Positions 51,065 through 53,672 of a DNA stretch of 64,000 nucleotides are shown here, in pieces (the stretch's first letter is position 1; each line of letters opens with the position of its first letter). The notes under the pieces were generated by a model. The model was not told the DNA's origin, did no database searches, and saw nothing but the letters and a program-made list of their open reading frames with translations. The DNA lies in NCBI GenBank assembly GCA_963674735.2, contig CAXXQS010000001.1, forward strand, positions 2,560,001 to 2,624,000. The letters run 5' to 3'. The DNA is from Myxococcota bacterium. Lineage in GTDB: Bacteria > Myxococcota_A > SURF-8. The translations under genes were made by a program, and so were the position numbers.

Positions 51065-51508
51065 ATGACAACCATCCGCGAAATTTTGAACGATAAAGGA
51101 CCGATTGTCGTTTCGATCCAGGAAAACAGCCATCTGCTCGAAGCCATCGACCGCCTCAACGAATTCTCCATCGGTTGCCTGGTGGTGATGAACGCCCAGG
51201 GACGCATGACCGGCGTGCTGACCGAACGCGACATTTTGCGCAACCTGCACCGCTACGGCAAAACCCTCGACGAGGTGCCCGTCTCCGATGTCATGAACCG
51301 CATCGTCTACACCGGCCGCCTCGACGACAACCTGGACGCGGTGATGGCGACCATGACGGAACGGCGCTTTCGCCATCTGCCGGTGGTCGATCACAACGAG
51401 CTGGTCGGTTTGATTTCCATCGGCGACGTGGTCAAACGGCTCAGCCATGAGCACGCCCGCGAAAACGCCATTCTGAAGGACTACATCAGCAGTCCCTACC
51501 CGGCGTAA
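51065..51508 (+). CDS. CBS-domain protein
   Basis: GVLTERD, RFRHLPVV, GLISIGDVVK; AGGAGG RBS. Confidence 0.93.
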   Translation: MTTIREILNDKGPIVVSIQENSHLLEAIDRLNEFSIGCLVVMNAQGRMTGVLTERDILRNLHRYGKTLDEVPVSDVMNRIVYTGRLDDNLDAVMATMTERRFRHLPVVDHNELVGLISIGDVVKRLSHEHARENAILKDYISSPYPA

Positions 51509-51580
51509 CCGGCTGTTTTCGGGGGGAACCGAGCCGAGATGAGCGGGTAATGGCGGATTAGGATGGGTGGAGTTTCAGGG

Positions 51581-51655
51581 GTAGGATGGGCAACAAGTTG
51601 CCCATCGCGTCGTCAAGTAAAGCTTCAAGAAGATGGGCAACAAGTTGCCCATCCT
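51581..51655. repeat. GTAG-tagged REP doublet family C, second arm interrupted by IS110
   Basis: GTAGGATGGGCAACAAGTTGCCCATC ... GATGGGCAACAAGTTGCCCATCCT; the terminal AC reappears at 52832 after the IS. Confidence 0.88.
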
Positions 51656-51669
51656 TGTATTATCCCTTT

Positions 51670-51872
51670 CAAGCGACTGTCATCGTTTGTGATGATAAGA
51701 TGAAACGACCTCCCGTAGCAAGCGGGAGGCCGTGGTGGGCGGCGAGATCGTCCCATCCTGGGGCCTGATGAGCCCGTTTTGTAGCCGGATCCGCCGTCCG
51801 TTTCGTCCGGGAAAACCCGAACAGTCGCAGGGGCCATTGTAATCGAAATGAGCCCGTATTGGCAAGGAAGGG
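51670..51872 (+). ncRNA. Putative IS110 bridge RNA
   Basis: Target loop CCCATCCT (51752-59) plus GTAG (51781-84); donor loop ACAGTCGC (51821-28) plus GCAAG (51862-66); each guide pair flanks an inner stem. RNA ends are approximate. Confidence 0.88.
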
Positions 51873-51878
51873 TGCGCC

Positions 51879-52814
51879 ATGAAGAAATGGATCGGGATCG
51901 ACGTCAGCAAAGCCGTTTTCGATGTCGCCGTCGACGGCGAAAGCACGTGCGTCCGCTACGCTTACACCAAAGCCGGCATGACACGCTTCGTCCGTTCGTT
52001 GAAGCGGATCGAGGTGGAGGGCGTCGTGATGGAAGCCACCGGCGGCTACGAACGGGAGCTGTGCAAACGTCTTCAGAAAGCGGGTTGGCCGGTGGCGGTG
52101 GTCAATCCCCGGCGCATCCGGGATTATGCCCGCGCCGTCGGCGTGATGGCGAAAACGGATCGACTCGATGCGGGCATCATCGCACGCTACGCAGCCGCCA
52201 TGCGTCCCGCACCGAACGAAACGCTCGGCGAAACCGCCCTCCTGTTAAAAGCCCTGTCTTCACGGAGGCGGCAGCTGGTCGCCATGCGCACGATGGAGAA
52301 AAACCGCACCGAACACGTGGGCGATCGGACGATCGGACAAAGCCTGCACCGCATTCTGGAGGTGATCGAACGGGAAATCGAGCGGCTGGATCGGGCCATC
52401 GCGGCGGCCATTGCATCGGATCGGGAGCGCAGCGACCGGGCCGCGCGGCTCCAAACGATGCCGGGCGTCGGCGCGTGCACGGCGAATCTTCTGGTGACGG
52501 ATCTGCCGGAGCTGGGGATCTACAACCGGCGGCAGATCGCGGCGTTGATCGGCGTGGCGCCCATGAATCGGGACAGCGGAACGTTTCGGGGTAAACGCAT
52601 GACCGGCGGCGGTCGTCATCGCCTGCGCACGGCGCTCTACATGCCGACGCTGGTGGCGATTCAACACAACCCGGTGATTCGCGGACACTACCAGCGGCTG
52701 GTCGGACGCGGCAAACCGAAGATGACGGCGGTGGTGGCCTGCATGCGAAAATTGGTCCTCATTCTCAACACGATGATGCGGAAAAACGAAGCCTGGAACC
52801 CGAATTTCGCTTGA
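51879..52814 (+). CDS. IS110 recombinase/transposase
   Basis: DEDD residues in GIDVSK, MEATG, KTDRLDA; PGVG; RDSG catalytic Ser loop; GGR..LR.ALY. Confidence 0.96.
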   Translation: MKKWIGIDVSKAVFDVAVDGESTCVRYAYTKAGMTRFVRSLKRIEVEGVVMEATGGYERELCKRLQKAGWPVAVVNPRRIRDYARAVGVMAKTDRLDAGIIARYAAAMRPAPNETLGETALLLKALSSRRRQLVAMRTMEKNRTEHVGDRTIGQSLHRILEVIEREIERLDRAIAAAIASDRERSDRAARLQTMPGVGACTANLLVTDLPELGIYNRRQIAALIGVAPMNRDSGTFRGKRMTGGGRHRLRTALYMPTLVAIQHNPVIRGHYQRLVGRGKPKMTAVVACMRKLVLILNTMMRKNEAWNPNFA

Positions 52815-52892
52815 CACCGATAACAGTCGCTACTTTTTTTTCTACGATCAACAAACCCAGTACCCGCCGGAAACGCACTCCGACACCCCCCT

Positions 52893-53672
52893 TCACCCCA
52901 TAAACTGCTCGCGCGCGACCGCGGCCAGCAGCAACACCAGAACCGCAATCGTCAAGGGGCGGATGATCCGTTCGCCGTTGCGCAGCACCAGACGCGACCC
53001 GAGCAGGTTGCCCGCAATACCGCCGCAAGCCGCGTAAATCGCCAGGGGAAACAGCACTTTGCCGTTGAGCAGAAAAATCGTTAGCGAACCGAGGTTGGAG
53101 GCCAGGTTGGCCAGGCGGGCATTGGCGGCCGCCGTCACCAGGTCGAAACGCAGAAGCAAGTAGAACGCAATCGCCATAAACGCCCCGGTGCCGGGACCGA
53201 AAAAGCCGTCGTAGCCGCCGATCAACCAGCCGATGCCGAAAGCCGCCAGCCATTGCCCCCGACGCGACAAGCGCAGCCCCGGCCCCCGCAACCAGCGGTC
53301 ACGAAACCAGAATGCCGCCGCCACGATGGGCACCAGCACCAGCAGCACCTGGCGCACGATCTCCGGGGGAGTCAACAGCGCCAGCTTGGCCCCCAAGGAC
53401 GCCCCAATCAGCGCCCCACCTGCCGCCAGCAAACCGAGCACCAGTTGCACGCGTCCCGCGCGGGCATAGCGGACGACCGCCGTCACCGTTCCCAGGCTGG
53501 ACGAGAATTTGTTGGTGGCCAGCGCCGTGTGCGGCGGCAGACCGAAAGCGAAATAAGCCGGTAAGCTGATCAAGCCGCCCCCGCCCGCAATCGAATCGAC
53601 AAATCCGGCCAGAAAGACCAGCCCCGTCAGCGAGATGATTTGAAGCGTGGAAAAATCGAGCGTTTCATACAT
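52893..53672 (-). CDS. TSUP (TauE/SafE, YfcA-like) transporter
   Basis: AGFVDSIAGGGGLI, ALATNK, YDGFFGPGTG. Confidence 0.93.
   Translation of the reverse strand: MYETLDFSTLQIISLTGLVFLAGFVDSIAGGGGLISLPAYFAFGLPPHTALATNKFSSSLGTVTAVVRYARAGRVQLVLGLLAAGGALIGASLGAKLALLTPPEIVRQVLLVLVPIVAAAFWFRDRWLRGPGLRLSRRGQWLAAFGIGWLIGGYDGFFGPGTGAFMAIAFYLLLRFDLVTAAANARLANLASNLGSLTIFLLNGKVLFPLAIYAACGGIAGNLLGSRLVLRNGERIIRPLTIAVLVLLLAAVAREQFMG

Follow-up and report, generated by a model that had tools for sequence, protein, structure and literature searches.

The locus carries an insertion sequence of 1176 bp (positions 51656 to 52831, counted with a single copy of the CT core), which lies after a REP hairpin within the window, that is, the whole 64-kb stretch of Myxococcota DNA that was analyzed. 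The features of the element and its target are listed in Table 1. The genome contains 8 copies of this element with 98 to 100% identity, and all 8 are preceded by a flank ending in ...GCCCATC-CT, start with TGTATTATCC, and end with ...ACAGTCG-CT followed by AC; there are also 14 empty REP sites with the sequence GCCCATC-CT-AC. Because the 8 copies agree and are matched by the 14 empty sites, the ends of the element, its CT core, and the excised junction sequence are secure. The core is found at both junctions and once in the empty site, the pattern expected for site-specific insertion in the IS110 group. The REP targets at positions 51583 to 51655 and at other loci of the same genome (L001 to L030) form inverted pairs of the type GATGGGCAAC-AA/TT-GTTGCCCATC, and the element is always inserted into the REP unit that ends in ...CATC-CT-AC. 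The recombinase matches both PF01548 (3e-22, 79.5 bits, cut-off 29) and PF02371 (8e-19, 68.2 bits, cut-off 21.3), the domain pair of the IS110 family. Its stop codon, TGA, shares bases with the −35 box of the junction promoter (positions 52809 to 52816, GCTTGACA), an overlap kept in nearly all relatives.

Table 1. Features of the element and its target site (positions in the window)
Feature	Position	Strand	Evidence or detail
Target: REP hairpin with left target GCCCATC at its end	51632-51653	+	8/8 copies, hairpin arms
Target-side core CT	51654-55	+	8/8 copies, 14 empty sites
Left-end start: right donor TGTAT	51656-60	+	8/8 copies
−10 box TATTAT	51658-63	+	Read from sequence
Spacer between inverted arms, 12 nt	51658-69	+	
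Left-end short sub-terminal repeat TAT(C)	51661-64	+	ATA/TAT repeat of Durrant 2024
Arm 2: inverted copy of right-end terminus, core, and first 2 nt of left end	51670-51685	+	
Rest of leader: small predicted hairpin, 51679-84 with 51691-96	51679-51701	+	Fold
Extended −10-like box TGaTAAGAT directly 5' of stem-loop	51693-51701	+	Consensus match alone
Bridge RNA 5' stem-loop	51705-51733	+	11-nt arms, 91%; folds
Target-binding loop	51737-51800	+	Left target guide CCCATCCT, 51752-59; right target guide GTAG, 51781-84
Donor-binding loop	51801-51878	+	Left donor guide ACAGTCGC, 51821-28; right donor guide CAAG, 51863-66
Recombinase gene, 311 aa, DEDD RuvC-like and Tnp domains	51879-52814	+	ORF, Pfam
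Right end: −35 box TTGACA overlapping the stop codon	52811-16	+	
Arm 1: (G)ATA, left donor ACAGTCG (52823-29), core CT (52830-31)	52818-31	+	

The noncoding left end (positions 51656 to 51878, 223 nt) contains a predicted bridge RNA in the published layout. The guides of the target-binding loop match the flanks of the element in the 8 copies and the 14 empty sites, the donor guides match the joined ends, and the predicted fold shows both loops, as is characteristic of IS110-group RNAs. In relatives, the target guides covary with the flanks: CCCGACCT is found with GCCCGAC-CT and GCTCAG with CT-GAGC. The 3' strand of the donor-binding loop holds the ribosome-binding site. An Rfam search returned three matches to the left end, all of them far below the thresholds. 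Joining the two ends would create a sigma-70-type promoter across the joint, as judged by the two boxes and their 17-nt spacing, a geometry shared with the junction promoter of IS621 from E. coli W. The circle joint was not found in contigs of three DNA runs searched over positions 51400 to 53100, although assembled contigs say nothing either way. On the minus strand, a promoter-like site at positions 51721 to 51692 (TTGCTA, 18 nt, TATCAT) points away from the element at its left end; RNA initiated there would cross arm 2 in the antisense direction and continue into the REP hairpin.

By all mechanistic criteria, the element belongs to the IS110 group of elements with a left-end bridge RNA (Durrant 2024; Hiraizumi 2024, 2026). 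It shares with IS621 and the group the DEDD and Tnp recombinase, the CT core, the REP target, a left end beginning with TGTATTATCCCT, the order of 5' stem-loop, target loop, donor loop, and guides, and the ATA/TAT repeat that flanks the donor. This 3-bp repeat covaries in relatives (ATA/TAT, AAG/CTT, and ATC/GAT) and is distinct from the inverted copy described below. In the literature, including the text of Durrant 2024, the group is described as having either no sub-terminal repeats or short imperfect ones of 2 to 3 bp, whereas this element carries an additional repeat of 14 to 16 bp; it is still filed under the IS110 group because the absence of repeats is a descriptive rather than a mechanistic trait.

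The additional repeat is an inverted copy of the element's own circle junction. The segment at positions 51670 to 51685 matches the reverse complement of the sequence formed by joining 52818-52831 to 51656-57 at 15 of 16 positions, the sole mismatch being C51681 opposite A52822. A repeat search recovers it as a pair of 14-nt arms (51672-51685 and 52818-52831) with 93% identity. When the 14-mer at 52818-52831 is searched against the window with up to 2 mismatches, there are 3 matches (itself, the minus strand of 51672-85 with 1 mismatch, and 57961-74 with 2 mismatches), compared with 0.31 expected, and none of 100 shuffles reaches 3. Within the copy, GCGACTGT (51673-80) is exactly antisense to the left donor guide, and it is antisense to the left donor as well. 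Read on the minus strand, 51666-51680 gives ACAGTCG-CT-TGAAA. The copy begins 7 nt past the −10 box, at the predicted 5' end of the RNA. The first-pass annotation had described this inverted copy, the −10 box in the 12-nt loop between the arms (51658 to 51669), the antisense match to the guide, and the minus-strand donor-like site, all of which are upheld by the sequence, the repeat search, and the shuffles. When the joined 90-nt junction is folded alone as DNA, its top strand forms a hairpin of −15.6 kcal/mol (z = −4.9; none of 200 shuffles is as stable) and its bottom strand one of −17.9 kcal/mol; in this element, the bottom strand is the more stable one because the sole mismatch is an A-C on the top strand. 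Thus, the inverted copy is real and far above chance. The autoregulatory role proposed for it in the first-pass annotation is plausible, and its function is unproven.

The known systems provide partial parallels. In IS621, small-RNA sequencing places the RNA directly after the junction promoter (Durrant 2024). It begins at the 5' stem-loop with no leader, and only CCAG at the transcription start is shared with the element described here. The left donor of IS621, ACAGTAT, has no complement in its left end (TGTATTATCCCTCCAGTGCAG...) or anywhere else before the target loop, whereas this element has a leader of ~35 nt with a 16-nt inverted copy. The repeats of the IS1111 group are 11 to 13 bp long, compared with 14 to 16 here, and in both cases one arm lies near each end and the two meet at the circle junction around the promoter. 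However, the IS1111 repeats are reported to lie on either side of the donor, at distances of 7 bp (left end) and 3 bp (right end), with the RNA downstream of the gene (Partridge and Hall 2003; Siddiquee 2024). In this element, the right arm is the terminus itself (0 bp from the end), including the left donor and the core, and the left arm is set 14 bp in from its end; the symmetry axis falls ~9 bp to the right of the core, and the RNA region is upstream of the gene, with only 17 nt following the stop codon. At the sequence level, the long inverted repeat departs from the description of the IS110 group and is not of the IS1111 kind, so that the distinction from IS1111-type repeats drawn earlier stands and extends to the published 3-bp repeat of the IS110 group, and the suggested absence of the feature from IS621 is upheld. 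The text passages of the IS110-group literature covered by the search describe no anti-guide, leader, or long or junction-spanning inverted repeat; Extended Data Fig. 10 and the orthologue tables of Durrant 2024 may bear on the short repeat. A further parallel is ISPpu9, an IS110-family element of REP sites whose expression is governed by leader RNA pairing before the recombinase gene: translation is blocked by a 5' untranslated structure until an antisense RNA of its own, Asr9, opens it, and the passage covered (a figure legend) describes no link to donor or guide. Unlike in ISPpu9, the ribosome-binding site here is not predicted to respond to the leader. Accordingly, a ribosome-binding-site switch was considered and rejected, there being no consistent change in accessibility (in this element, 0.36 compared with 0.45 after leader shuffling; among the 22 rows shown, 5 had an incorrectly placed start codon and hence wrong intervals).

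Relatives of the element were gathered at several taxonomic levels, with matches in 5 of 10 genomes of its class and in 9 of 401 genomes of the phylum. Ten loci in named genomes show at most 46% identity over the full length, and 80 of 310 metagenome relatives, with 48 to 56% identity, were used. The resulting 93 sequences included 71 with a recognizable left-end start, which were grouped into 57 clusters; tests based on the right end used the 52 clusters in which that end was recognizable, and the left-target-guide control used the 55 with a located target-loop anchor. The CCGAACAGTCG-type guide motif is found in 90 of the 93 sequences, and the right end ...ACAGTCGCT is near-invariant, as are the left donor and its guide. 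As the guide is invariant, only one-sided changes are available for a helix between leader and guide. The two nearest full-length relatives of the same layout outside this genome are L043 (59% protein identity) and L044 (57%). The left ends of all three elements are near-identical from +1 to +25, including CARGCGAYTGT, and then diverge until the target loop.

Across the family, a core C-A-R-G-C-G-A-Y is found at +15 (+10 in five clusters) in 30 of the 57 clusters, a count that is set in part by the search pattern. In an unbiased test for duplexes between the leader and the donor-guide window, calibrated with shuffled leaders, 19 of the 57 clusters had p ≤ 0.05. A repeat run gave 22 of 55 clusters, compared with 5 for the reversed guide, 4 for a sense copy, and 3 for the left target guide, although all such counts overstate independence because the clusters are related. 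The excess of leader complementarity is specific to the donor-guide window. [quoted passage not shown] Thus, the presence in relatives that was proposed as a check on the feature is seen for the core of the repeat, with the whole +1 to +25 segment kept in L043 and L044. The proposed covariation with donor and guide finds almost no variation to draw on in this family, whose left donor hardly changes. The two variable bases that follow the guide show no covariation with the motif: in a fixed register, 31 distinct motif/guide pairs from 42 elements gave 63 of 93 pairs, compared with 60.3 on average in permutations (p = 0.196).

Several other arrangements were seen in these left ends. In L093, L118, L074, L121, L083, L097, L104, and L116, the 5' stem-loop, at about +50 to +90, is a near-copy of the right-end terminus (...CACAGTCGC) paired with GCGACTGTG..., so that the RNA region of this group contains the donor sequence three times. 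Most metagenome loci have a conserved GTTCGGG before the 5' stem-loop, which is the exact complement of a CCCGAAC located ~110 nt downstream, in front of the donor guide, and the two may form a long-range helix; a local partner, GTCCGGG, is found instead in this element and its nearest relatives. In L042 and L081, positions +27 to +45 contain a second TGTATAAT / GGTATAAT box followed by (C)GAGCGAC, which resembles the left-end start and the motif repeated in tandem in degenerate form. In L031, from a Gemmatimonadales genome bin, the right end ...CAGTCGCT is directly followed by a second left-end start in a tandem or junction-like arrangement. Extended −10-like boxes are found in 13 of the 57 clusters, compared with 5.0 expected; TGnTAnnnT is seen at +38 to +41 in L044, L045, L073, L075, and L079 and at +27 in L081, and in this element the box lies 7 nt before the 5' stem-loop. 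Judging from its consensus match, the latter could give rise to a leaderless bridge RNA from the integrated element. An alternative assignment, GCGACT as the −35 box of an internal promoter, was rejected: the spacing is 17 nt here and 18 nt in L043, but it does not fit in L044 (20 nt), L045, or L042 (aligned by eye).

The same 8 to 9 bases occur in the guide RNA and in the right-end DNA, so that both are candidate partners of arm 2. In this element, the arm fits the junction at 15 of 17 positions and the guide at 11 of 17 (z = −5.8 and −2.8, respectively). The junction is also the better partner in L043 (z = −3.9 versus −2.7), L044 (−6.0 versus −2.2), L042, L072, and L075, whereas in the group with the motif at +10 the guide is better. 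Family-wide, after shuffle calibration, the guide is better in 18 and the junction in 16 of the 52 clusters (p = 0.25). Two other comparisons were set aside. Raw duplex energies gave 34 clusters for the guide and 15 for the junction of the 52, a composition effect that vanishes on shuffle calibration, and flanking bases in the 15 clusters with at least 7 of 8 core pairs gave 40 matches for the guide and 33 for the junction of 75 upstream and 41 and 35, respectively, of 60 downstream. Where the complement is imperfect, the changes are mostly C-to-T and A-to-G in the transcribed sense, so that G-U or G-T pairs are kept, and the top strand forms the more stable hairpin in 31 of 52 clusters, compared with 14 for the bottom strand (mean difference, 0.33 kcal/mol). 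Taken together, these substitutions and the top-strand stability point to pairing within a single strand, of RNA or of the DNA top strand, and not to a site read by a protein in duplex DNA. The earlier suggestion of an operator bound by the recombinase is without basis, since these enzymes read DNA via RNA, and the suggested cruciform is unlikely, as a 12-nt spacer disfavors extrusion in duplex DNA.

Our leading interpretation, held tentatively, is that the inverted copy serves as an RNA anti-guide that masks the donor loop. From the promoter geometry and the homology with IS621, we infer that transcription starts at 51670-72, because the −10 box ends 7 nt earlier, at 51663; IS621 has the homologous CCAG after the same −10 box and at an equal distance. 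The segment would then make up the first ~15 nt of the RNA transcribed from the junction promoter of the excised circle and open a leader of ~35 nt between the transcription start and the conserved 5' stem-loop. GCGACUGU would pair with the left donor guide, ACAGUCGC, located ~150 nt downstream, and the resulting helix would close a large multiloop and hold the donor-binding loop shut in the free RNA. Donor binding would then require either the opening of this helix by the recombinase or a leaderless RNA, which could come from processing or from the internal −10-like box. In the integrated state, RNA is supplied by upstream read-through, as reported for IS621 (Hiraizumi 2026), and such transcripts would carry the leader. 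In both minimum-free-energy and centroid folds, the 5' 8-mer pairs with the guide (51670-51880, −89.6 kcal/mol, z = −3.8; 51671-51890, −90.4 kcal/mol, z = −3.2; in either case, none of 200 shuffles is as stable). The predicted unpaired probability of the guide is 0.07, compared with 0.39 when the first 22 nt are shuffled, and the corresponding values are 0.00 and 0.37 in L043 and 0.00 and 0.25 in L044. In most relatives, the motif spans only 5 bases of the guide and no masking is predicted (0.55 versus 0.56 and similar values), and in the five clusters with the motif at +10 the junction transcript would lack most of it, as the motif starts upstream of the predicted transcription start. Masking of the guide also leaves unexplained the 7 extra matches to the junction, and the two variable bases after the guide lend it no support. 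The folds, the conservation of +1 to +25 in L043 and L044, the family-wide excess of leader complementarity, and the substitutions that keep G-U pairs speak for the anti-guide; formation of the helix in cells and any regulatory effect are inferred.

Those extra matches are the starting point of the closest rival to the anti-guide, a reading that we consider somewhat doubtful, in which the top strand of a single-stranded circle folds back so that arm 2 pairs with the right-end terminus. Such pairing would make the left donor, the core, and 2 nt double stranded again, supplying the missing "bottom strand" to the left donor guide, and the 12-nt loop would keep the right donor single stranded. The complementarity spans the joint and reaches the right-end-specific bases 52818-22, which are absent from the guide RNA, and fold-back is alone in explaining both the joint-crossing copy and these bases. 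It is further favored by the better fit of the arm to the junction than to the guide, the stability of the joined-junction hairpin noted above, and the slightly greater stability of the top strand across the clusters. In the right end, the 11th base before the core differs between this element and L044 (G to A), and this difference is matched by a C-to-T change opposite it in the arm (by-eye alignment with one bulge allowed). Two preprints report single-stranded circles of IS110 elements, and according to one of them, a top-strand single-stranded donor recombines ~20-fold more poorly than a duplex at the junction on the left-donor side (10.1101/2025.10.25.684509; 10.64898/2026.08.31.748434). 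On the other hand, the more stable fold in this element is that of the bottom strand, a bulge is required for the distal matches in L043 and L044, and most relatives have arms of ~8 bp with G-T pairs and loops of 7 to 12 nt, which are marginal for DNA. In addition, IS621, for which a single-stranded circle is reported (10.64898/2026.08.31.748434), has no such arm. The more specific proposal that the element encodes its own substitute bottom strand, to be read by the RNA guide in the folded single-stranded circle, is less probable again; if true, it would be the first RNA-guided recombination site presented as a folded single DNA strand. Reconstitution of a duplex by fold-back of one strand, with strand-specific tolerance of mismatches, is familiar from integron attC sites, the ends of IS200/IS605 elements, and single-strand origins of rolling-circle plasmids. 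Such folded sites are read by proteins and not by an RNA guide, and their likeness to this element is an analogy.

It is improbable, in our estimate, that the copy has no present function, being either a by-product of fold-back repair or duplication at the joined ends or a conserved start that complements the donor by chance. The motif opens with CCAG, which IS621 also has, there without a complement, and the true donor-complementing core of the family is only GCGAY, which could be due to chance (estimate, ~0.05). The bases flanking the guide show no detected covariation, and the identity of all 8 genomic copies conveys no information on selection. Against the lack of function, positions +15 to +25 are kept at 57 to 59% protein identity although the adjoining leader is unalignable, the complementarity is specific to the donor-guide window (22 versus 3 to 5 of 55 clusters), and complements of at least 8 nt to the left donor recur in L078, L147, L069, and the L093 group. 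An inverted half-site, consisting of a minus-strand left donor, CT, and TG, which would act as a decoy near the promoter or allow inversion of the element body with the right end, is quite unlikely. The minus-strand ACAGTCG-CT-TG does match 8 of 8 nt of the left donor guide and 4 of 4 of CAAG, and a donor half-match is reported to be enough for recombination by IS621 (10.64898/2026.08.31.748434). Yet in most relatives the minus-strand core would be CC and only 4 to 5 donor bases match, the genome contains all 8 copies in one arrangement and none that is inverted or rearranged, and the site lies 16 bp from the true core, probably too near for synapsis. Less likely still is an RNA hairpin formed by transcription around the circle, in which both arms would be present only in joint-crossing RNA and would form a 16-bp stem; this stem, with UUUGU after it, would end transcription before a second lap while leaving fresh starts unaffected. 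The junction folds as RNA (−25.5 kcal/mol, z = −3.2), the arm is followed by TTTGTG, and the plus strand of the right end has no other terminator-like site. However, although the stem is adequate, the loop has 12 nt and the U run is shorter than the at least 5 residues expected of an intrinsic terminator, which should also have a short loop; neither is conserved in L043 or L044, whose arms are not followed by a U run, and relatives with 8-bp arms would not terminate.

The feature is real and partly conserved, with the anti-guide and fold-back readings standing close together. Bridge recombinases are under development as programmable genome editors, and their natural control raises the questions of the direction of the reaction, of single- versus double-stranded circles, and of side reactions at half-matches. 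Guide masking, if true, would offer a ready-made switch for the donor loop, and fold-back, if true, a design rule for single-stranded donors. Either masking or presentation of a duplex donor, if true, would explain why this subfamily has a leader while IS621 has none. Even if functionless, the inverted copy corrects the textbook view of the IS110 group as lacking long inverted repeats.
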